In this document: positions 10,877-20,000 of the stretch, one piece after another
Numbering within the stretch: the first letter of the stretch is position 1
How the letters are laid out: every line of letters starts with the position of its first letter
From: an uncultured virus (IMG/VR IMGVR_UViG_3300032268_000397)
Taxonomy: Duplodnaviria > Heunggongvirae > Uroviricota > Caudoviricetes
Direction: 5' to 3' (one strand)
Length of the DNA: 20,000 nucleotides
Virus record (IMG/VR): IMGVR_UViG_3300032268_000397
Notes under the pieces: model-generated
What the model saw: only the letters and a program-made list of their open reading frames with translations
Told to the model about the DNA's origin: nothing
The model's database searches: none
Program-made: the position numbers and the translations under genes

Positions 10877-11127
10877 AGTTTTTCTACTTTAGTGATTCTA
10901 ATAAATTTTTTGATTTTTCTGCAAAGTATTCTACTTTTTATGGACTTATCTTTTTTTAAGACATACTTTATTAATCGATCCACTACGACAAAACACGCAT
11001 CGTCATAATTATCTGCTTCTATGAAAACTAGAGAAAATGGTATAGTGTATCCTATTAAGTGTACAGAGTACGATACTAGCTCTTGATATACATCAGAAAG
11101 ATCTATTGTTAGTCTATAGTTTTGCAT
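10873..11127 (-). CDS. Hypothetical protein
   Basis: 84 aa ORF overlapping both neighbours, consistent with translational coupling. Confidence 0.7.
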   Translation of the reverse strand: MQNYRLTIDLSDVYQELVSYSVHLIGYTIPFSLVFIEADNYDDACFVVVDRLIKYVLKKDKSIKSRILCRKIKKFIRITKVEKL

Positions 11128-12166
11128 CTATCATCAGTTTCACCAATCCGTATAGATCATGCTTTGGACTCCAACCTAGAACACTTTTTGCTTTTGAACA
11201 ATCACCGCGTAAGTATGGGACTTCTGAGGGTCTAACTAACTGCGGATCAATATATATAGCATCTTTCCAATCTATAATACTATCTAAATTAGTATATTTA
11301 AAACAAAGATCTAGAAATTCCCAAACGGTATGCGAGTTACCAGTGCAGATTACATAATCGTCTGGAATTTCTTGCTGTAGCATAAGCCACATAGCTTCAA
11401 CATAATCTCCAGCATATCCCCAATCTCTATAAGTATCTATATTTCCAAGCTTTAATTTTGGAAATACGCTGTCACCGACAATAATATTATGGTTATTAAC
11501 AAACACATTATTTGATGAATGATTAATAGAATTTAGCCATTTCTTAAAACTCACAGTCCATTTGACTATTTTTTGGGTTACGAAATTATCGCCTCTTCGC
11601 GGGCCTTCGTGATTGAATAATATTCCACAGCTACCATGCACATTGTAAGCGTCACGATACAATCTAACTAAATAATGTGCCGCGCATTTTGATATAGCGT
11701 ATGGTGAGTTGGGCATAAATTTAGTATTTTCGTCTTGATATTTACTTCCATCTTTATCTAGATCAAATGAACTACCAAACATTTCACTAGATGAGGCTTG
11801 GTAAAATTTGCAATTATTACCTGTATCCACAATAGCTTGGAGTACATTTAAGCAGCCTTTGCCGGTTATGTCCCATGTTAATGCTGGTTGACTAAACGAG
11901 GTTGCAACATGCGATTGTGCGGCTAGATTATAGACCTCATCTACATCTTCGTTATTCTTAAAAATGTTAATTACACTACTTACATCTGTTATATCCCCTT
12001 CGATCAAATTGAAGCTATCACAATCAGACAGATGTTTTAATCTTTGGGTATTATCCACGCTACAGCGACGAGTTACACCAATGACACTATAATCTTTCTC
12101 TAATAATAGGTCTGCTAGGTGACTGCCGTCCTGTCCAGTGATTCCAAATATAATAGCCTTTTTCAT
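11114..12166 (-). CDS. gmd: GDP-mannose 4,6-dehydratase
   Basis: GITGQDGS Rossmann motif, YNLAAQSHV, FYQASSSEMFG, SPYAISK (YxxxK), GILFNHE, LGN...RDWGYAGDYV, RPSEVP. Confidence 0.95.
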   Translation of the reverse strand: MKKAIIFGITGQDGSHLADLLLEKDYSVIGVTRRCSVDNTQRLKHLSDCDSFNLIEGDITDVSSVINIFKNNEDVDEVYNLAAQSHVATSFSQPALTWDITGKGCLNVLQAIVDTGNNCKFYQASSSEMFGSSFDLDKDGSKYQDENTKFMPNSPYAISKCAAHYLVRLYRDAYNVHGSCGILFNHEGPRRGDNFVTQKIVKWTVSFKKWLNSINHSSNNVFVNNHNIIVGDSVFPKLKLGNIDTYRDWGYAGDYVEAMWLMLQQEIPDDYVICTGNSHTVWEFLDLCFKYTNLDSIIDWKDAIYIDPQLVRPSEVPYLRGDCSKAKSVLGWSPKHDLYGLVKLMIDAKL

Positions 12167-12168
12167 AA

Positions 12169-12954
12169 TTAGTCCTTAATTGTATCCGGTGTAAGAAATG
12201 GTTGATCTACTGTATTATCTGCGTAGGTATGATAAGAAGAAAGGCGTTCCTTCTCCTTTTCTGTAGCAAGGCGCATTTTCTCCATCTCAATTCCATATTG
12301 TTTCATTTTGTCTGGATTATCGATTAGCATAGCTACCCAACTAGTAAAGCTTTGCTTAGAGTCCTCCAATCGCTTTATTCTCTGTTCGCGTGTACCCTTC
12401 ATTTCACGAAGTATAGCGGCCTTCTTTGTTTGTAGTTCACGATAGTCTTTATTTAGAGCTTCCTGAGAAGCTCGTAGAGAAGCAGACTGTCTTTCTAGGT
12501 TGAATATATAATCCATGTCTTGTTGATCTTTTTCGCGCTCACGTTCAGTCGCAATCATTTTATCGTAAACGTTTATCTGTACTATATTATCCTTATTACT
12601 TCTAAGGCACCTATTCATTAATATCTCTAATTTTATAACGTCTATTACTTGCAACTCTTCTGTTGGGAAAACGTCATCATTAAACTGTGATATGATTCTA
12701 CCCCAGTGATATTTAAACAACTCTAATTCTTCCTCAGTAAACTGTGAAGCTAATTCACCCCAATAGGGGCGATCTTCTAGTGAGTAAGTGGCCTCTTCTT
12801 CTGGTGATAAATTATGTCTAAATTTTCGCTTAATAAACTGATCTATAGATTCTACATCACGATCTAGCTCTTTAGCTATATCTTCTGGAACCATAGTATT
12901 AATTAGGCGCGAAATAATACGCTCTTCTTCTTTAGAAATACGCCCCTTACGCAT
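12169..12954 (-). CDS. N-terminal HTH plus coiled-coil protein; possible terminase small subunit
   Basis: KGRISKEEERII...PEDIAKELDRDVESI is HTH-like, followed by long helices; upstream of TerL in the same operon. TerS role is inference only. Confidence 0.45.
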   Translation of the reverse strand: MRKGRISKEEERIISRLINTMVPEDIAKELDRDVESIDQFIKRKFRHNLSPEEEATYSLEDRPYWGELASQFTEEELELFKYHWGRIISQFNDDVFPTEELQVIDVIKLEILMNRCLRSNKDNIVQINVYDKMIATEREREKDQQDMDYIFNLERQSASLRASQEALNKDYRELQTKKAAILREMKGTREQRIKRLEDSKQSFTSWVAMLIDNPDKMKQYGIEMEKMRLATEKEKERLSSYHTYADNTVDQPFLTPDTIKD

Positions 12955-13435
12955 TATTTATATTCTCCATTATTTCCTTTATTAGAGCGACTATTTTTTC
13001 CCTTTTAGCTTTTGTCATGGCAACGTTGTTAATAAACTTAAGGTAATCTGAACGATAGCGCGCTGGCAAGCGATCAGAGATTAATTCGTCCATATCTTTA
13101 AAATCAACGCTGTGAGTAGTTTCGTTATTTTCTACATTTTCTTCATAAGATAATTGCATAGGGGAACAGACTCTTCTTTTTTCATAATTATTACTAAATG
13201 AGTAGTTGTCGCGTACAAAGTTTTTTAATCTATTTGACAGATGGACGGATAGGAAGTTTTCAAGGGGGCGCGTTTCATCATAGCGATCTAGCGCATCTAA
13301 GCAAATGATAAAAGACTCTTGCTTAATATCGTTTATGTCATAACCGTAAAATGTATACTTGGGGGATATTCTATCTATTACTTTATTGATTTGTGCAACC
13401 AGTTCTTCTTCTGTCATGTTTGAAGGTATTTTCAT
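12947..13435 (-). CDS. Phage sigma70-family sigma factor-like protein (region 2)
   Basis: YGYDINDIKQESFIICLDALDRYDETRPLENFLSVHLSNRLKNFVRD matches sigma region 2; start 13435 overlaps the upstream stop (ATGA); region 4 poorly recognisable. Confidence 0.75.
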   Translation of the reverse strand: MKIPSNMTEEELVAQINKVIDRISPKYTFYGYDINDIKQESFIICLDALDRYDETRPLENFLSVHLSNRLKNFVRDNYSFSNNYEKRRVCSPMQLSYEENVENNETTHSVDFKDMDELISDRLPARYRSDYLKFINNVAMTKAKREKIVALIKEIMENINNA

Positions 13436-14055
13436 ATTTTGCGCCATCCTTTACCGCTGTAATATTTTAAACAGTCATCGGCGTTATCATATATAATAAG
13501 CCCCTTAGTCTTTGGCGCATCTTTACAGGAATCATAAGAAGTGGCCCTGCATAAGTCATTAATATTTAGTGATTTTACACTTGAACCAATTCTTCCTAAG
13601 ACACAATTATCATCTAAAGTAACGGCGTCAACTAGGCCAGACTCATTAGAATAAACAACACTATATGGAAATGCGAAAAATTCATCAAGTGAGAGGGGCG
13701 GATCTACGGATAGGGAGATAACTTCCTTGTCTACGCATACCATATTAGTGGGTTGAGTATATACGTTAGCCTGCTTGAGTTCACCGTTGTAGAATAGTGT
13801 GATGGGGCGTAAACGTACTAGGTATGTCTTGTCTAGTATTTTCTTAAACTTACCTATACCGCGCTCACCTATAGAAATGGCATTGGGGGGCGTTAGCTTA
13901 ACTAATGAATATATATAGTGGGACTCATAATCGATTAGTTCAAGAGTCTTTGCTACATTGGGGTCTAGTTGCTCATTTGTTAATTCAAGTAGGTTGCTAG
14001 AGTTAATTACGTATTTAGCTAGGCAATTGTTTAGTGGAAGTTGTTGATGATTCAT
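13432..14055 (-). CDS. Hypothetical protein with C-terminal GLIIYD...KYYSG..W motif
   Basis: About 207 aa ORF; purine-rich RBS before ATG 14055; the C-terminal motif resembles short beta modules of virion fibre proteins. Confidence 0.6.
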   Translation of the reverse strand: MNHQQLPLNNCLAKYVINSSNLLELTNEQLDPNVAKTLELIDYESHYIYSLVKLTPPNAISIGERGIGKFKKILDKTYLVRLRPITLFYNGELKQANVYTQPTNMVCVDKEVISLSVDPPLSLDEFFAFPYSVVYSNESGLVDAVTLDDNCVLGRIGSSVKSLNINDLCRATSYDSCKDAPKTKGLIIYDNADDCLKYYSGKGWRKI

Positions 14056-14188
14056 CCTTTTTCCCTTCATCCAGTAATAAAGATTCTAGTGGGCGATCCT
14101 CTTTCTCTAAGTCTTCAATAATAGAAGTGTTTAGACTTGCATTGGCGCGACAGTGTAATTGCGATTCAACTAATTTTGGTTCATTCAT
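14015..14188 (-). CDS. Small hypothetical protein, first gene of the leftward operon
   Basis: AAGGAG RBS upstream of ATG 14188 (MNEPKLVESQ...), 57 aa. Confidence 0.6.
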   Translation of the reverse strand: MNEPKLVESQLHCRANASLNTSIIEDLEKEDRPLESLLLDEGKKDESSTTSTKQLPS

Positions 14189-14206
14189 ATTATTTCTCCT
14201 TACCGT

Positions 14207-14215
14207 ATTATACAC
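14207..14215 (-). promoter_or_regulatory. Leftward promoter motif GTGTATAAT
   Basis: Variant of the recurring GTGTAT(T/A)A motif just upstream of the RBS of the first minus-strand gene. Confidence 0.55.
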
Positions 14216-14355
14216 TGTTTGGTGCCTTTTGTTGCGCTTGGGGGCGATGAGGGAGGATTGGGTAGTACATTACGTTAATAATTTTGAATCGTGAATGAAC
14301 TACCCCGGCCCAAAGGCATAGTCAGCCCACTTTATCTATTGAAGATAAAACCCCC

Positions 14356-14376
14356 CAGTGTCAGTGTCAGTGTCAG
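14356..14376. repeat. Tandem hexamer (CAGTGT) x3.5
   Basis: cagtgtcagtgtcagtgtcag read directly, at the strand switch. Confidence 0.9.
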
Positions 14377-14381
14377 CTACA

Positions 14382-14459
14382 TAAGTGTTTGGTATATAAG
14401 GACTTACATCGCATATTGTACGCTTGATCGGTCGTAAGTCTTTATATATCAATAACTTA
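14382..14459. repeat. Double-palindrome element, copy 1
   Basis: TAAG-N17-CTTA at 14382-14406 and 14435-14459 (53-bp offset). Confidence 0.9.
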
Positions 14460-14472
14460 CGTAAAGAGTGTT

Positions 14473-14506
14473 TGGCATAGGTCTTGCTATAGCAAACGGT
14501 ATGCCA
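14473..14506. promoter_or_regulatory. Face-to-face pair of sigma54 (-24/-12)-like sites
   Basis: Plus strand TGGCATAGGTCTTGCT (14473-14488); minus strand TGGCATACCGTTTGCT (14506-14491). Both are GG-N10-GC. Confidence 0.65.
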
Positions 14507-14571
14507 AGTATAGGGAAAAGGGAAAGAAAGTTTTGTCAAAATCTCTTGACAATATTATTTGGATTTTTCTC

Positions 14572-14607
14572 TTGCAAGCTAAAGAATGTTTGGTATAATG
14601 TCGATAT
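14572..14607 (+). promoter_or_regulatory. sigma70 promoter with nested sigma28-like motif
   Basis: TTGCAA-N16-TATAAT with TG extension; TAAAG-N15-GTCGATAT. Confidence 0.7.
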
Positions 14608-14635
14608 AAGAAGTAAGAAAGAAAGAGAAGAGAAA

Positions 14636-14854
14636 ATGGAAAAAGCAACCTCAGTCAACAGTTTCATCAACAGTCTCCCCAAGATTACCCAGAAGAAAGT
14701 CTGGAAGGTAATCGATCAGAATGGTACGGTTGTACAGTATGTCGGGGCTACCGATAATCGGAAAAGCTCTGCACAAGCGTATATCGATCATAAGTACGCT
14801 GGTCAAAAGCTTACGCTGACCTTCTCGCACTTCAAGGGATTGATGACCCTCTAA
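14636..14854 (+). CDS. Hypothetical early protein (72 aa, basic)
   Basis: MEKATSVNSF... start chosen downstream of the promoter and a purine-rich leader instead of the ORF-track start 14468. Confidence 0.7.
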   Translation: MEKATSVNSFINSLPKITQKKVWKVIDQNGTVVQYVGATDNRKSSAQAYIDHKYAGQKLTLTFSHFKGLMTL

Positions 14855-14863
14855 TAGAGGGGG

Positions 14864-14891
14864 TTGACACGAAGAAAAAACTTGCTAGAAT
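14864..14891 (+). promoter_or_regulatory. sigma70 promoter
   Basis: TTGACA-N16-TAGAAT with TG extension, preceded by a CCCTCT-AAT-AGAGGG hairpin. Confidence 0.75.
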
Positions 14892-14916
14892 AAACACACA
14901 AGAAAGAGAGACTCTA

Positions 14917-15033
14917 ATGATTACGGTTATCGAATACGCCCAACTGTTTGCCCTTATTACGTTTGCTGGTTTCATGTCCTACACTGCTCACGAAGTGGGT
15001 AACGCTGTTCAAGATATGTTCGATGAAATGTGA
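14917..15033 (+). CDS. Small hydrophobic peptide (38 aa)
   Basis: MITVIEYAQLFALITFAGFMSYTAHEVGNAVQDMFDEM; has its own promoter and exactly fills the gap to the next promoter. Confidence 0.6.
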   Translation: MITVIEYAQLFALITFAGFMSYTAHEVGNAVQDMFDEM

Positions 15034-15062
15034 TTGACACAGCAAAAGAAGTTTGATAGAAT
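15034..15062 (+). promoter_or_regulatory. sigma70 promoter
   Basis: TTGACA-N17-TAGAAT with TG extension. Confidence 0.8.
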
Positions 15063-15102
15063 ACACACACAAGAGAACGATAACCCAATAGGATAGAAAA
15101 CA

Positions 15103-15423
15103 ATGGCTACCAAATTCCCCATCATCGAAAATGCCAAGCGTCAAGCCCGTATGTGCTTCCTTGGAATGGCAATCCCAACAGAGGTAAAGAACATTGACGG
15201 TGAGATGATTCAAGTTGAAAAGGTACTAAAGTTCAATCGTAAAGCCTTGAAGAATCTTGGTAAGGTAACAAAAGAAAAGATTGACAAGCGATACTCTGGT
15301 GGTGACGATACTATGATCGTTCCAGTAGGTAAGCCGGGATCGCGTGAACGTGTTGAAGAATTAGCCAAGCAGTACAGCGTTGTACAGCGTATGGAAATTA
15401 GCCCCTTTTCATTTAAGGAGTAA
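15103..15423 (+). CDS. Hypothetical early protein (106 aa)
   Basis: ORF with AGGA RBS downstream of a promoter. Confidence 0.75.
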   Translation: MATKFPIIENAKRQARMCFLGMAIPTEVKNIDGEMIQVEKVLKFNRKALKNLGKVTKEKIDKRYSGGDDTMIVPVGKPGSRERVEELAKQYSVVQRMEISPFSFKE

Positions 15424-15428
15424 TAACA

Positions 15429-15500
15429 ATGATAGGCGCAATACTATTTGTGGTTTGCTGGTGTGGAATGTTGTATACCTGTACAATTGTCAGAGATTGA
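15429..15500 (+). CDS. Hydrophobic micro-peptide (23 aa)
   Basis: MIGAILFVVCWCGMLYTCTIVRD with AAGGAG RBS. Confidence 0.5.
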   Translation: MIGAILFVVCWCGMLYTCTIVRD

Positions 15501-15517
15501 AAAAAGAGAGAATTGAA

Positions 15518-15712
15518 ATGGACAAAAGATTTGTTATCGGTTATGATGGGTTTCTCAGGCGTGAAGCAATGCAGACTTTTGAGCAAGCAAAAGCGTCTTG
15601 GCTGAAGGATATCCAGAATCGTTTTCTTTATGAGTACGATTGTTCAGTATATGAACTGAATGAAGATGGAAGTATCAATCGTCGCGTGTCATATGAAGAA
15701 CTCAAATCTTAA
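15518..15712 (+). CDS. Hypothetical protein (64 aa)
   Basis: MDKRFVIGYDG... internal ATG of the ORF-track 15380 frame, with a GAGAG leader. Confidence 0.65.
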   Translation: MDKRFVIGYDGFLRREAMQTFEQAKASWLKDIQNRFLYEYDCSVYELNEDGSINRRVSYEELKS

Positions 15713-15730
15713 TACAACCTTTGCTTGACG

Positions 15731-15808
15731 TAAAGCCTTGTGCCTAAAAGACTTAGGGCAAGGCGGGCGAGGCGAATTCGCCGTAAGTGTTTATGCCACA
15801 ATGGTTTA
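15731..15808. repeat. Double-palindrome element, copy 2
   Basis: TAAA-N17-CTTA 15731-15755 and TAAG-N17-TTTA 15784-15808; GC-rich 28-bp spacer. Confidence 0.9.
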
Positions 15809-15839
15809 TGACAATCTTATTTTTCCTTGATTTTTCCTC

Positions 15840-15867
15840 TTGACGATGCCGATACATACTGTATAAT
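15840..15867 (+). promoter_or_regulatory. sigma70 promoter with internal GCCGATAC
   Basis: TTGACG-N16-TATAAT. Confidence 0.75.
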
Positions 15868-15890
15868 GAGCGTATCCAAAGGAGAGAATC

Positions 15891-16595
15891 ATGAAAGTTG
15901 CAAACGGTAATGACAAGTTGGGCAAGGGTTGTTTGGTAGTGTCGCGTCCAGTGGGTGATACATGCCCGCCCGATTGTGATTTCTTGGGTAACGGCTGTTA
16001 TGCAGAGCAGACCGAAAAAATGTATCCTAATGTTCGCCCCGCTGGTATGCAGAATATCATAACGGAAAAGAATCGCATTCGTGCTATGATTCTTGATGCC
16101 ATTCGTCAAAGTAAGTCTATCCGCTGGCATGAGCGTGGTGATTGGTTTCTCAATGGCGAACTTGACCTAGACTATGTTGCTAATGTAACGTGGGCTTGTG
16201 AGAGTATTATTGCCGATGGTACAACGCTGCCTGACATGTGGTTTTATACTCATATCTATGACGATAGGCTTGTAAGTCTTAGTAAGTATATGAAAGTATA
16301 TGCCAGTATTCACAATGACGAAGACATGGGAGAAGCTCTCGCAAAGGGATTCAAACTTTTTGCATGGTGTGATAGTGATCAGAAGATTGCTAAAAAGCGT
16401 CCCAAGCGTAAGAATCTGGCAGAGGCTTGGAGACAGTCTCTGCCCAAGCTTGTAGTGTTGAATGGTACTAAATTTGTAACATGCCCAGAGATTCGTCGCG
16501 GTCGCGGTGTTGTAACATGCACCCCCACTAAGGGTAGTGTAACATGTGATTTGTGTGTAAAGGGTTTGGCTAACGTATTGTTTCCAGCACATTAG
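15891..16595 (+). CDS. Gp88-like Cys-rich protein (radical-SAM-like fold, probable)
   Basis: GNDKLG, TCPPDC......CYA, IRWHERGDW, WFYTH and C-terminal CPE/C/CDLC; AAGGAG RBS. Confidence 0.6.
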   Translation: MKVANGNDKLGKGCLVVSRPVGDTCPPDCDFLGNGCYAEQTEKMYPNVRPAGMQNIITEKNRIRAMILDAIRQSKSIRWHERGDWFLNGELDLDYVANVTWACESIIADGTTLPDMWFYTHIYDDRLVSLSKYMKVYASIHNDEDMGEALAKGFKLFAWCDSDQKIAKKRPKRKNLAEAWRQSLPKLVVLNGTKFVTCPEIRRGRGVVTCTPTKGSVTCDLCVKGLANVLFPAH

Positions 16596-16606
16596 GAGTA
16601 TACATC

Positions 16607-16840
16607 ATGATTAGTTATAGTCACCAGTATTTAGATATTAGGGCAGTTTGTGAACATAATGAACTCGACGTTGAATTAGTAATGCAGCATCTTTGCGATA
16701 GCGACCTTTCATTTGGAAGTAACTATGATACTTTAATATCTCAGCATCATCTACAGAGTATTATTAACGAGGGATTTGATAACGTGCAGTTAGACTTTGG
16801 TGGACATGATGATACTGTCGTTATTAGCCTAGGAAGTTGA
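16607..16840 (+). CDS. Small acidic hypothetical protein (77 aa)
   Basis: AGGAG RBS; stop codon abuts repeat copy 3. Confidence 0.7.
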   Translation: MISYSHQYLDIRAVCEHNELDVELVMQHLCDSDLSFGSNYDTLISQHHLQSIINEGFDNVQLDFGGHDDTVVISLGS

Positions 16841-16842
16841 CG

Positions 16843-16920
16843 TAAGTCCTTGACCCTAAAAGACTTAGGGCAAGGGCGGCGGGCCGCATTTGTCGCAAGT
16901 CTTTATTTGATAAGGGTTTA
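16843..16920. repeat. Double-palindrome element, copy 3
   Basis: TAAG-N17-CTTA 16843-16867 and CAAG-N17-TTTA 16896-16920. Confidence 0.9.
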
Positions 16921-16950
16921 GAGAAAATCGAAAAAAATCTTTTTTGGCAC

Positions 16951-16987
16951 TTGACAACTAAACTTTTGCTCTGTATAATGCCGATAT
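16951..16987 (+). promoter_or_regulatory. Consensus sigma70 promoter with nested sigma28-like motif
   Basis: TTGACA-N17-TATAAT with an A/T-tract UP element; TAAAC-N16-GCCGATAT. Confidence 0.85.
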
Positions 16988-17007
16988 AGAAAGTAAGGAG
17001 AAATCAA

Positions 17008-17166
17008 ATGGAAACGCTTTACATTAGTGATTGCTGTGGCGAGTACCTTGCGAGTGAGCATGTGGAGTATGAGGTTTGCCCGCGATGCAAAGAACATTGT
17101 GAAGTAATTACAGAAGAGTATACTCTGGCACTTGACGAAAACAATACACTGTGGTATATTGGCTGA
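17008..17166 (+). CDS. Small zinc-ribbon-like protein (52 aa)
   Basis: METLYISDCCGEY...VCPRCKEHCE...; AAGGAG RBS; below the ORF-track size cut-off. Confidence 0.75.
   Translation: METLYISDCCGEYLASEHVEYEVCPRCKEHCEVITEEYTLALDENNTLWYIG
17132..17160 (+). promoter_or_regulatory. sigma70 promoter inside the zinc-ribbon gene
   Basis: TTGACG-N17-TATATT with TG extension. Confidence 0.6.
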
Positions 17167-17177
17167 AAGGAAATAAA

Positions 17178-17246
17178 ATGAATGTCTTGCTGTTTGGCTT
17201 TTTTCTTGCGTTTCTTTTTTATCTCGCTATCACACTAAGGGACTAA
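17178..17246 (+). CDS. Hydrophobic micro-peptide (22 aa)
   Basis: MNVLLFGFFLAFLFYLAITLRD with AAGGA RBS. Confidence 0.5.
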   Translation: MNVLLFGFFLAFLFYLAITLRD

Positions 17247-17250
17247 TACC

Positions 17251-17475
17251 ATGAGCCACCCCGACCCATTGTTTGATCCAGAGAATTCTTACGAGGACGA
17301 TGATATGAACTATGACGATTACAATGACTTTTATGAGGATACGGATGAAGAAACGACCGATGAATCTTGGGATGATTCATATGATGATAGTATGGATGGG
17401 GATGCTGAATCTGCGTTCGGTTCATGTGGATGGGGAACTGATGAAACCTACGGCTATTATGGAGACGATGAATAA
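17251..17475 (+). CDS. Extremely acidic small protein (74 aa)
   Basis: About 29 D/E and no K/R; AAGGGA RBS; C-terminal DGDAESAFGSCGWGTDE motif. Confidence 0.75.
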   Translation: MSHPDPLFDPENSYEDDDMNYDDYNDFYEDTDEETTDESWDDSYDDSMDGDAESAFGSCGWGTDETYGYYGDDE

Positions 17476-17681
17476 TGTTGCATAGATTCTATGATATCAA
17501 GGCAGAAAATGAACAGTTCGAAGAGTTTGTTCATGATAAAGAATATGTCTTGCATGTACCAGAATATGACATGTCAACCCCTCTTGAGAGGCAGGAGGGT
17601 ATAGGATACATGCTCGAAATTCTGACTGCCGCAAGTGGCGTGAACGTTTGTTCATTCAAGGTAGATCAGAAGATCGCTTGA
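17475..17681 (+). CDS. Hypothetical protein (68 aa)
   Basis: TAATG overlap with the upstream gene; stop abuts repeat copy 4. Confidence 0.7.
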   Translation: MLHRFYDIKAENEQFEEFVHDKEYVLHVPEYDMSTPLERQEGIGYMLEILTAASGVNVCSFKVDQKIA

Positions 17682-17683
17682 CC

Positions 17684-17761
17684 TAAAGCCTTGTCTCTAA
17701 ACGACTTAGAGCAAGGCGGGCGGGCTGGGTTGATCGTAAGTCTTTTCATATCAAGTATTTA
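17684..17761. repeat. Double-palindrome element, copy 4
   Basis: TAAA-N17-CTTA 17684-17708 and TAAG-N17-TTTA 17737-17761. Confidence 0.9.
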
Positions 17762-17770
17762 GGACAAAAT

Positions 17771-17810
17771 TCAAGTTTGTCTTGACAAGTGTCGATACAT
17801 GGTGTAAGAT
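17771..17810 (+). promoter_or_regulatory. sigma70 promoter with nested sigma28-like motif
   Basis: TTGACA-N17-TAAGAT; TCAAG-N15-GTCGATAC. Confidence 0.75.
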
Positions 17811-17828
17811 GGTATGCACAAAGGAGTT

Positions 17829-17966
17829 ATGTATATGGTAGATGAGGAAGATTGGGTACAACCGGAAGATGAGACAGAACAGCAACTCTTGGTAGAGTGG
17901 GAGGAATGGGTAAGATCGCAACCCGCACAACCGCCACAAGAGGATGGGCAGTCCTGCCCGAACTAG
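17829..17966 (+). CDS. Small acidic protein (45 aa)
   Basis: MYMVDEEDWVQPEDETEQQLLVEWEEWVRSQ...; AAGGAG RBS. Confidence 0.65.
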   Translation: MYMVDEEDWVQPEDETEQQLLVEWEEWVRSQPAQPPQEDGQSCPN

Positions 17967-18006
17967 AAACATCATAGTTTTTGGCCGCATAGTCAGCGAA
18001 ACTGAT

Positions 18007-18046
18007 TAAAGTTGGGCTTGACGTATGGCCGATAATAAGATATACT
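18007..18046 (+). promoter_or_regulatory. sigma70 promoter with nested sigma28-like motif
   Basis: TTGACG-N17-TATACT; TAAAG-N16-GCCGATAA. Confidence 0.75.
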
Positions 18047-18052
18047 GAGCGT

Positions 18053-18565
18053 ATGAACATATTCATATTAGATAACGATCCACGAACAGCAGCAGAGTAT
18101 ATGTGTGACAAGCATATACCAAAGATGATCGTGGAGACATTCCAAATGATGGGTAGTGCATTGCGTCGGCATGGTGCTAGGGATGAGCAAATGCCACTCA
18201 CGCAGGCCGGAAAGCCACTCATAGGTGGGTATAAGCATCATCCATGTACGGTGTGGGCTGGTGATAGCATATGTAATTTTGTCTGGCTAGGATTACATGG
18301 TATGTCATTGTGCGACGAGTATACATTTAGATATAACAAGACTCATAGCTGTGATATGAAAATACGTCATATGTGTGAGCTTATGGATATGCTACCTAAT
18401 ATCCCGCAAACTCCATATGCCTTGGCAATGCCAGACGAGTATAAATGTTCAGACGCTATTGACTCTTACCGTCGATACTATATAATGGAAAAGTCGCGTT
18501 TTGCTAAGTGGGAAAAGGGCCGCAAGTCTCCACACTGGTGGAATAAGGAGGAATGTTATGTCTAG
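18053..18565 (+). CDS. Pyrimidine-dimer DNA glycosylase / endonuclease V-like protein
   Basis: MNIFILD...DKHIPKMIVETFQM...HHPCTVWA...EYTFRYNKTH...AMPDEY...YRRYY pattern of the DenV-like (Pyr_excise) family. Confidence 0.8.
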   Translation: MNIFILDNDPRTAAEYMCDKHIPKMIVETFQMMGSALRRHGARDEQMPLTQAGKPLIGGYKHHPCTVWAGDSICNFVWLGLHGMSLCDEYTFRYNKTHSCDMKIRHMCELMDMLPNIPQTPYALAMPDEYKCSDAIDSYRRYYIMEKSRFAKWEKGRKSPHWWNKEECYV

Positions 18566-18806
18566 TATTTTTGATGAATATACAGCCGCACAACTTCGTG
18601 AGATATATCAGGAACCTTTTGAGGATTGGCCTGATGATTTCAGGCATTTCTTGCATGATGAGATAGCGGCAGATTTCTTGGAAGCGTGGATGGAACAGTG
18701 TGAAGAAGATGAATACATGGAACGTGTCCGTCAAGTTATAGAAGATTTGACTTATGGATATGAAGATGAGCATGGCAATGTTATGAAAGAATTTGATATA
18801 CACTAA
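18558..18806 (+). CDS. Acidic hypothetical protein (82 aa)
   Basis: MSSIFDEY... with AAGGAGG RBS. Confidence 0.7.
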   Translation: MSSIFDEYTAAQLREIYQEPFEDWPDDFRHFLHDEIAADFLEAWMEQCEEDEYMERVRQVIEDLTYGYEDEHGNVMKEFDIH

Positions 18807-18825
18807 CTTTTTAGAGGAATATAAA

Positions 18826-19308
18826 ATGCCAAACTGGTGTTCTAATAATATTGTTGTTACTCATACAAAGCCTGAGAAGTTGAAAGAATTTGTTGACGCA
18901 TATAACAATGGTGCCGTATGCGAACACTTTATGCCACAGCCCAAAGATTTAGATTCAGACGATTGTTTTGGCCCAAACGGCTGGTATACTTGGCGTTGTA
19001 ACAATTGGGGAGTCAAGTGGGACTTTGGTAAAGAAGATCATGACAGTCGAGCAAAGATTGTAAACAACGAGGTGAGCATCAGCTTTTCAACTGCATGGTC
19101 GCCCCCTATTGAGCTTTATCATCATTTACAGGACGAAGGATATGAGATTAAAGCTACATACTGGGAGCCAGGAATGGCTTTCTGTGGCGTGTATGAGGAT
19201 GGTGAAGAAAATACTATTTCCTATACATGCAATGATGAAATCCCAATTGGGCTTTGGGATGAATACAATATGGAAGAACTTTTGGAAGAGACGGAGGCTG
19301 ACGCTTGA
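18826..19308 (+). CDS. DUF1281/YubB ferredoxin-like domain protein
   Basis: MPNWCSN, WYTWRCNNWGVKWD, FSTAWSPP and YWEPGMAFCG signature; GAGG RBS. Confidence 0.8.
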   Translation: MPNWCSNNIVVTHTKPEKLKEFVDAYNNGAVCEHFMPQPKDLDSDDCFGPNGWYTWRCNNWGVKWDFGKEDHDSRAKIVNNEVSISFSTAWSPPIELYHHLQDEGYEIKATYWEPGMAFCGVYEDGEENTISYTCNDEIPIGLWDEYNMEELLEETEADA

Positions 19309-19333
19309 CAGGTGTGGGACTATGTGATACAAT
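19305..19333 (+). promoter_or_regulatory. sigma70 promoter for the tRNA
   Basis: TTGACA-N17-TACAAT with TG extension. Confidence 0.8.
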
Positions 19334-19351
19334 CATGTAGTCCTACCCTTT

Positions 19352-19424
19352 GGGGGTGTAACTTAGCGACTAAAGTAGCGGTCTTTTAAACCGTTTATCG
19401 TGGGTTTGAGTCCCACCGCCCCCA
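19352..19424 (+). tRNA. tRNA-Lys (anticodon UUU), CCA not encoded
   Basis: Acceptor GGGGGTG/CGCCCCC plus discriminator A; D-stem ACTT/AAGT; anticodon arm GCGGT-CTTTTAA-ACCGT; T-arm GTGGG-TTTGAGT-CCCAC. Confidence 0.9.
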
Positions 19425-19446
19425 CTTCTTTTACAAAGGACGCAGC

Positions 19447-19521
19447 ATGATAGAGTTATATGTTTTGATCTTGTTTTGGGTTTTGATCTTTGGGGCTACA
19501 GGGGATAACAATGGAAAATAA
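19447..19521 (+). CDS. Hydrophobic micro-peptide (24 aa)
   Basis: MIELYVLILFWVLIFGATGDNNGK with AAGGA RBS. Confidence 0.5.
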   Translation: MIELYVLILFWVLIFGATGDNNGK

Positions 19522-19654
19522 CTTTCTATATAATGAGTATGTGATGGGTGATACAGACTATTACGAAGATCAAGAAAATAGACAAACTCAAGTGTGGGAC
19601 TACTACGCTCTCTACCATGATGAAGAGATTGAAGACATAGACGTAAGTGATTGA
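19511..19654 (+). CDS. Small acidic protein (47 aa)
   Basis: MENNFLYNEYVMGDTDYYEDQE...DEEIEDIDVSD; GGGGA RBS; ends inside repeat copy 5. Confidence 0.6.
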   Translation: MENNFLYNEYVMGDTDYYEDQENRQTQVWDYYALYHDEEIEDIDVSD

Positions 19655-19721
19655 TAAATAAGGACTTATGGATGATCGGGGCCGCCGCGTTGATCCTAAG
19701 TCTTTATGTACCATAGACTTA
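19644..19721. repeat. Double-palindrome element, copy 5
   Basis: TAAG-N17-CTTA 19644-19668 and 19697-19721. Confidence 0.9.
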
Positions 19722-19739
19722 CAGCAAATAAAGATTTTT

Positions 19740-19782
19740 TCAAGTTTACCCTCTTGACAGGACGATAATGATAGTATACAAT
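19740..19782 (+). promoter_or_regulatory. sigma70 promoter with nested sigma28-like motif
   Basis: TTGACA-N17-TACAAT; TCAAG-N16-GACGATAA. Confidence 0.75.
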
Positions 19783-19804
19783 ACGTGTAATGAAAGAGAG
19801 ATCA

Positions 19805-19957
19805 ATGATGAATACAGACACTTACATGGTAATGAAGGGCAGTAAGGTTCTTGGATACGTTGAAGCGTATAGCACCTATCACGCCTTGATTATGGCTGAA
19901 AAGCTGTATGGTAAAAATTTGATTATTGAGAGAATTTCTCAAGTTTGTCAAGCATAG
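19805..19957 (+). CDS. Small hypothetical protein (50 aa)
   Basis: MMNTDTYMVMKGSKVLGYVEAYSTYHALIMAEKLYGKNLIIERISQVCQA after a promoter and GAGAG leader. Confidence 0.65.
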   Translation: MMNTDTYMVMKGSKVLGYVEAYSTYHALIMAEKLYGKNLIIERISQVCQA

Positions 19958-20000
19958 ATAAAACAAGCAGATAGTGGCCGCTGGCAGAATGATATCAAAG

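Follow-up and report, generated by a model that had tools for sequence, protein, structure and literature searches.

The attC sites of integrons form imperfect hairpins with an unpaired base and are located at the ends of gene cassettes. In T4-type phages, PeSL (promoter-early stem-loop) cassettes contain a repeated unit between small early genes that combines the upstream stop codon, a stem-loop, and a sigma70-like promoter and that serves as a seam for gene shuffling; the placement of the stem-loops themselves is reported to vary, within the promoter or close to it (PMC2839356; PMC4122927). REP sequences are short intergenic stem-loops without a U-tract that come straight after a stop codon, which is often supplied by the edge of the repeat (PMC12306157; PMC3733652). 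REP tags are described as GTAG or CGTC unpaired beside the stem (PMC3733652), and REP stem-loops are reported to be exonuclease barriers (PMC12306157). At the level of duplex DNA, the IHF kink geometry, as seen in the sites of IHF and HU (DNABII), places a TT step and an AA step 9 bp from each other, with N4-TTR after them (PMC1874591; PMC5829579).

The element described here, found repeatedly in the early region of a tailed phage, resembles the stem-loop part of a PeSL or a stop-proximal REP and belongs to neither. Like a PeSL, it is a repeated unit between small early genes in which an upstream stop codon, a stem-loop, and a sigma70-like promoter are combined, and it may serve as a seam for gene shuffling. 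Unlike in a PeSL, a rigid 78-bp twin palindrome lies well upstream of the promoter, one of its halves carries the overprinted stem, and the register of this stem moves with the stop codon. The phage also differs from the PeSL-bearing phages in not being T4-like, and the sole match of its capsid protein among 50,697 phage records is Bacillus phage G, at 20%. With REP, the element shares a short intergenic stem-loop that has no U-tract and stands straight after a stop codon. It differs from REP in that the hairpin has no GTAG tag, no accompanying RAYT/Y1 gene in five relatives, and no stem or loop sequence conserved in its own right; it also occurs only in the early region of the phage, where its orientation is always that of the genes. 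The imperfect hairpin, the unpaired base, and the location at a cassette end are likenesses to integron attC sites; unlike these, the element has no core motifs, its bulge is variable, its cassettes carry promoters, and no integron integrase was found in five relatives. The DNA layer, with the layout TT-N7-AA-N4-TTR, resembles the step pattern of IHF/HU sites; unlike these, it has two-fold symmetry and comes as pairs 53 bp apart. In most half-sites of the element, 2 to 4 bases deviate from the IHF consensus WATCAANNNNTTR; with at most one mismatch, WATCAANNNNTTR was present in 79 B-right, 58 A-left, 25 B-left, and 18 A-right half-sites of 353 unique elements. No DNABII gene was found in five complete relatives. 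Judging from the figure legends of the source, the paired "global regulator" sites of Geobacter have consensus repeats that differ from those of the element. Our literature search, which covered sources other than subscription journals and bioRxiv supplements, returned no description of the element.

Genomic setting and the twin-palindrome element

The window, i.e., the whole 20,000-nt stretch that was analyzed, comes from a large tailed phage. Genes for terminase, a major head protein, and a sigma-factor-like protein are carried on the minus strand, and from about 14.5 kb the plus strand carries small genes with sigma70-like promoters (Table 1). A genome scan for host assignment gave 66 scattered matches with inconsistent taxa. 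The early region of the window is punctuated by five twin-palindrome elements, and in related phages, with sizes of up to 244 kb, such elements are clustered over about 20 kb.

Table 1. Positions of the elements, hairpins, and other features in the window
Feature	Position	Strand	Remarks
Nucleotide-sugar epimerase-like ORF	11114-12166	-	start of minus-strand block
Sigma-factor-like ORF	12947-13447	-	start of minus-strand block
Twin-palindrome element 1	14382-14459	+	sites 14382-14406 and 14435-14459; opens cluster; no same-strand upstream gene assigned; without bulged hairpin
Remnant of gene abutting element 2 in nearest relative (L280)	15714-15728	+	last codons and TGA
Twin-palindrome element 2	15731-15808	+	site A 15731-15755, site B 15784-15808
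Bulged hairpin, copy 2	15735-15764	+	site A positions 5-34; 11/12 pairs, G-G at 12-28
Sigma70-like promoter downstream of element 2	15840-15867	+	consensus match only
Twin-palindrome element 3	16843-16920	+	site A 16843-16867, site B 16896-16920
Bulged hairpin, copy 3	16847-16876	+	12/12 pairs including U5-G34 wobble; begins 6 nt past TGA of ORF 16607-16840
Sigma70-like promoter downstream of element 3	16951-16979	+	12/12; consensus match only
Twin-palindrome element 4	17684-17761	+	site A 17684-17708, site B 17737-17761
Bulged hairpin, copy 4	17688-17717	+	12/12 pairs; begins 6 nt past TGA of ORF 17475-17681
Sigma70-like promoter downstream of element 4	17782-17810	+	consensus match only
tRNA gene	19352-19424		inside early region; Rfam search
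Twin-palindrome element 5	19644-19721	+	without bulged hairpin; long A-B fold instead

Each element is a 78-bp twin palindrome upstream of early promoters and consists of two 25-bp sites, each built as TAAGTNNTT-N7-AANNACTTA, with starts 53 bp apart. In the long loci, 164 site pairs were spaced at 53 bp, and any other spacing occurred at most 3 times. Site A, the gene-proximal half of the twin palindrome, carries the bulged hairpin. The strongest column dependencies across the elements, as measured by mutual information, are those of neighboring dinucleotides, which suggests shape readout at the DNA site, and the twin palindrome is regarded here as a putative duplex-DNA protein site with that mode of readout. 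In all copies, the center of the 28-bp linker (element positions 35-44) is almost pure G+C and directional, with G36 in about 90%, and it folds no better than the null. Three variants (L429, L560, and L624) possess site A and the bulged hairpin without site B and have a reverse sigma54-like motif in its place. Rfam covariance models run on window positions 14000 to 20000 gave no match to the element; they returned the tRNA and a chance mir-96 match.

Several further motifs were seen around the elements. GCCGATA or GTCGATA recurs in or beside the spacer of sigma70-like promoters, in the window at 15850-15856 and in the 16970s, and at many related loci. Three GTGTCA-like hexamers stand in tandem just ahead of element 1 (14360-14377), and two sigma54-like -24/-12 motifs are placed head to head right after it, at 14473 on the plus strand and at 14506 on the minus strand. 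Downstream of the 353 elements, sigma54-like motifs were found in forward orientation in 19 cases and in reverse orientation in 50, the latter mostly at offsets 103 and 107-108; they showed no association with the bulged hairpin (reverse motifs, 2/30 versus 15/97).

Structure and covariation of the bulged hairpin

If the first base of site A is counted as position 1, the stem joins positions 5-10 to 34-29 and positions 12-17 to 28-23, leaving base 11 unpaired and positions 18-22 in the loop. The first-pass annotation had reported hairpin strings in copies 2, 3, and 4, and all three were found at 15735-15764, 16848-16875, and 17688-17717. Copies 1 and 5, which it described as lacking the hairpin, form 5 and 5 of the 12 pairs, versus 11, 12, and 12 in copies 2, 3, and 4. 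The median energy of the stem is -16.0 kcal/mol as RNA versus -8.9 kcal/mol for the same stem folded as DNA, and for RNA ending at position 45 the pair probability is above 0.5 in 94%. When copy 3 is folded over 101 nt, the minimum-energy fold is another long hairpin, and the bulged hairpin prevails when the RNA ends near position 50.

Homologues were collected with a pattern in which seven scaffold pairs were fixed and the others were left free, giving 385 matches, with 231 unique sequences that have site B and 6 that do not. The loop, which had been described as AmGAC, is actually ANNAC in this set (AGAAC 66, AGCAC 46, AGGAC 38, AAGAC 29, and ACGAC 21 of 231), and it coincides with the conserved right half-site of the DNA site. 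The identity of the bulged base is not special either (T 88, C 80, A 58, and G 5 of 231). As for the single extrahelical base that the hairpin was said to keep, its position is fixed, and in copy 2 the G-G at 12-28 requires a U-G register shift. Conservation of the bulge position also holds in the homologues and is what the DNA site alone would lead one to expect. Since the 7-bp core and the 53-bp spacing are set by the DNA site, the one-base offset would be irremovable, and the loop and the bulge would therefore need no separate explanation.

The free pairs covary in the 231 homologues, and the hairpin withstands this check. Pair 14-26 is Watson-Crick in 228 sequences (permutation mean 183.9, maximum 198) and pair 13-27 in 176 (permutation mean 93.3, maximum 111), and pairs 12-28 and 5-34 are Watson-Crick in 149 and 150, respectively; each of these counts exceeds the maximum of 1,000 permutations. 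Among 173 representatives, pairs 13-27, 14-26, 12-28, and 5-34 rank 1 to 4 of 3,655. The E values of these four top free pairs, which come from our own tree-based null and not from R-scape, are 0.007, 0.020, 0.18, and 0.53, with only two below 0.05, and in smaller sets no pair had an E value below 0.05 (best E, 0.055 to 0.09). By parsimony, double changes recur on single branches, 12 of them at pair 14-26 and 17 at pair 13-27. RNAalifold recovered the 12-pair fold on 84 diverged copies of the 231, and the covariation score was reached by 0 of 500 shuffles and also beat all slid registers. The hairpin points to the sense strand, as G-U outnumbers A-C by 42 to 4 under a Watson-Crick-only gate. 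At pair 9-30, T-A (112) and T-G (115) account for the sequences other than four with T-T; a purine at position 30 is, however, already common in the non-hairpin copies (77%, versus 97% of the hairpin copies). Hairpin copies showed no avoidance of site A's own palindrome. In one further element (L279, minus strand, index 14582), the near-invariant pair 15-25 has a compensatory T-A to C-G change, and the hairpin is perfect. Judged by its covariation, the hairpin in site A is a real RNA hairpin.

The frequency and register tests were carried out on the 353 unique elements, which were collected without the hairpin pattern; a hairpin-biased set of 31 loci (8 of 361 unique elements) was excluded. 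At least 11 of 12 pairs in the bulged-hairpin register (A-right) were found in 55 of the 353 elements, a frequency that may be overstated because 6 of the 9 discovery genomes were reached through hairpin-biased matches. The three symmetry-equivalent registers gave 0 of 353. The pairing excess peaks at z values of 7.3 and 5.5 in the exact registers and does not go beyond 2.6 at other offsets. In the 251 of 353 elements without T15A16, there is essentially no pairing excess in the bulged-hairpin register, with 5-34 as the only exception (p, 0.016). Hairpin pairs are not among the top pairs in the unconditioned mutual information of all elements, which are neighboring dinucleotides only, because the hairpin copies are a subclass.

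Hairpin register and the upstream stop codon

The new result of this comparison is a general rule by which the axis of the site A stem tracks the upstream stop codon; the bulged hairpin represents one of the registers. In elements without the bulged hairpin, site A still outfolds half-swapped controls (z, -7.6 on the plus strand and -6.1 on the minus strand), and the frequent alternative fold axes over it are 26 and 33; site B shows no folding excess versus such controls (z, +1.1 to +2.0). When the stop codon lies 1 to 5 nt before site A, 40 of 43 stems are in the bulged-hairpin register. With the stop 6 to 12 nt before site A, 12 of 16 stems have an axis of 29-34, and with the stop 28 to 60 nt before it, 9 of 14 have an axis of 25-27. 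The correlation between axis and stop position is 0.66 (rho; n = 84). Ten held-out genomes, which are not fully independent because cassettes are common to several genomes, gave a rho of 0.60 (n = 57), with 15/17, 10/15, and 10/14 stems in the three stop-distance classes. An abutting stop codon is present in 25 of 29 elements with the hairpin versus 13 of 79 without it, and in 13/17 versus 4/71 in the held-out genomes; elements that scored in between or had no assigned ORF are not included in these tables. At the level of gene families, the corresponding numbers are 10/14 versus 11/40 (p = 0.009). ORF ends were assigned by our own rule, and no ORF was assigned in 21/145 and 12/107 elements. 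The end of the stem is fixed at position 34 in the abutting class only.

The five copies in the window agree with the rule or depart from it in appearance only. Copies 3 and 4, which start 6 nt after a TGA, and copy 1, which opens the cluster, are consistent with it, and in copy 5 the upstream ORF (ATG at 19511, stop codon ending at 19654) runs into site A. Before copy 2, another gene, ending at 15712, now precedes the remnant of the gene that abuts the element in L280, the replacement being located upstream of 15714. Copy 2 keeps the old abutting stop, so that its exception to the register rule is only apparent. From the match of 15714-15728 to L280, the gene replacement before element 2 is evidently recent. 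Across the elements, the common ancestry of site A and the hairpin is with the flank upstream of them and not with the one downstream; 113 element pairs have only the upstream flank in common, and 234 have only the downstream flank in common.

The register rule bears on the possibility that the hairpin is a mutational by-product without a function, template switching having perfected a latent quasi-palindrome in the protein site. This would fit a hairpin of which 7 of the 12 pairs are built from bases that are near-consensus across the whole family and which occurs in a minority of the elements. However, site B, on the same scaffold, shows no excess, half of the copies retain T-G wobbles, and the register follows the stop codon, all of which make a by-product very unlikely.

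It also bears on a possible action on the terminating ribosome, either by REP-like stalling with mRNA cleavage or by modulation of release, which would tune the output of the upstream gene. Among elements with a stem and a stop codon within 27 nt, the first paired base falls 5 to 6 nt past the stop in the modal class (29/70 and 14/40). A stem 6 nt past the stop would stand at the entrance of the mRNA channel, which accommodates 11 nt downstream of the first P-site base; stem-loops at 11 to 12 nt are reported to impede A-site binding (PMC7282821); REPs within 15 nt of a stop have also been reported as ribosome stallers, in a paper that cites another study (PMC12306157). However, closeness to the stop codon is not required, since 14 of 15 genes ending 28 to 60 nt upstream keep a site A hairpin in each set. 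Bacterial SECIS elements require an in-frame UGA upstream. A signal of this type, or another readthrough signal, was rejected, as TAA and TAG also fill the stop slot (TGA 21, TAG 2, and TAA 2). A role at the terminating ribosome is decidedly unlikely.

Predicted role at the mRNA 3' end

The reading that we consider the best, and on balance probable from the sequence comparisons, is that of an mRNA 3'-end stem-loop, similar to those of PeSL and REP, which is overprinted on a duplex-DNA protein site. The hairpin most likely would protect or mark the end of the preceding gene's message, rather than being a recombination site. The first-pass annotation had proposed a selected single-strand structure; this is borne out by the covariation, the sense-strand G-U bias, the restriction to site A, and the coupling to the stop codon, and the same observations support one of the roles it had suggested, that of an RNA 3'-end stabilizer, as the predicted function. 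In the proposed mechanism, each early cassette is ordered as promoter, gene or genes, stop codon, and twin palindrome, and the twin palindrome would provide a docking site on duplex DNA for a putative protein. The 3' end of the upstream mRNA would include site A as well, and the covariation shows that the free positions of site A are used there to build a stem-loop. Where the gene ends well upstream, site A folds about its own axis together with its flanks. With a stop codon directly against the repeat, coding sequence occupies the left flank, which would be the reason why the stem is found about 7 nt farther to the right, and this shift would force the conserved half-site into the ANNAC loop and leave one base unpaired. 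The stem would then begin about 6 nt past the stop, at the edge of the terminating ribosome, although it may be conserved bases of the site that set this 6-nt spacing. Its most likely job would be that of a REP-like barrier against 3'-5' exonucleases, defining and stabilizing the mRNA 3' end, and transcription would be halted or cut downstream by another agent, such as the protein at the twin site.

The absence of a sense U-tract, already remarked on in the first description of the hairpin, extends to the homologues. No U-tract follows the stems in the window, and at least 5 T in 8 nt were found in 0 of 231 homologues; the 8 nt after the stem contain on average 0.13 T and 7.7 G+C. The element thus has the stable hairpin after the gene that intrinsic terminators have and no 7- to 9-nt U-tract directly after the stem. 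Mycobacterial polymerase is reported not to terminate in vitro at hairpins without a U-tract (PMC3993855), and terminators a few bases from a stop codon are reported to be repressed (PMC4824070). With the missing U-tract and the G+C-rich sequence that follows, these reports make a canonical terminator unlikely. They also weigh, together with a would-be RNA-DNA hybrid that is almost all G+C, against a U-tract-less terminator or attenuator of the PeSL kind, which might release polymerase stalled by a protein bound at site B. Such a device would suit a hairpin located at the cassette end ahead of a strong promoter, and with the polymerase 9 to 11 nt beyond the stem, its front edge would be near site B. 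In addition, one inserted PeSL stem-loop lowered lacZ expression as much as the strong terminator rrnB T1 (PMC2839356), which counts against the exonuclease barrier. We regard this terminator or attenuator as unlikely. A composite U-tract-free termination device, in which a single sequence would have three readings (the twin-site protein would block polymerase, the site A hairpin would release or cap the transcript, and the register would be tuned to the mRNA entrance of the terminating ribosome), is quite unlikely; if it exists, it would link, in every swappable early cassette, the end of transcription with that of translation.

The first-pass annotation had also considered a single-stranded DNA substrate of the attC-like or HUH type, in which one base is extrahelical. 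A substrate of this sort would be used for cassette shuffling. The cassette-like layout, the fixed position of the bulge, and module exchange near the element are in line with such a substrate, as is a weak Phage_integrase match in one of five relatives (E, 3.4e-6, below the cut-off). This match (L289; G004:135211-135405) is in a 311-aa frame far from the repeat cluster. Against this, the bulged base and the loop vary, other registers substitute for the bulged one, the position of the bulge is set by the 25-bp/53-bp geometry, and the loop is the right half-site. The single exchange inspected breaks at 15714, upstream of the hairpin, and the stem is weaker as DNA than as RNA. The attC core motif pair, RYYYAAC / GTTRRRY, occurs in 2 and 0 of the 231 homologues on the plus strand and in 0 and 2 on the minus strand. 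The GTAG/GGAG tag is present in only 5 of 231; GACG, which reads CGTC on the other strand, is present in only 65 of 231 and belongs to the extended arm of the DNA site. Y1_Tnp (PF01797), Resolvase, and above-cut-off Phage_integrase (PF00589) domains were each found in 0 of five complete relatives. A single-stranded DNA substrate is extremely unlikely.

In this element, the free positions of a rigid, putative DNA protein site carry another code, at the RNA level, and a simple stop-register rule holds across hundreds of natural copies. These copies provide a natural allelic series for the debate on the part, if any, that hairpins lacking a U-tract have in making or protecting the 3' ends of bacterial RNAs. 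The minus strand also has a site A folding excess, and at least 5 U follow the stem there in 52 of the 231 homologues.
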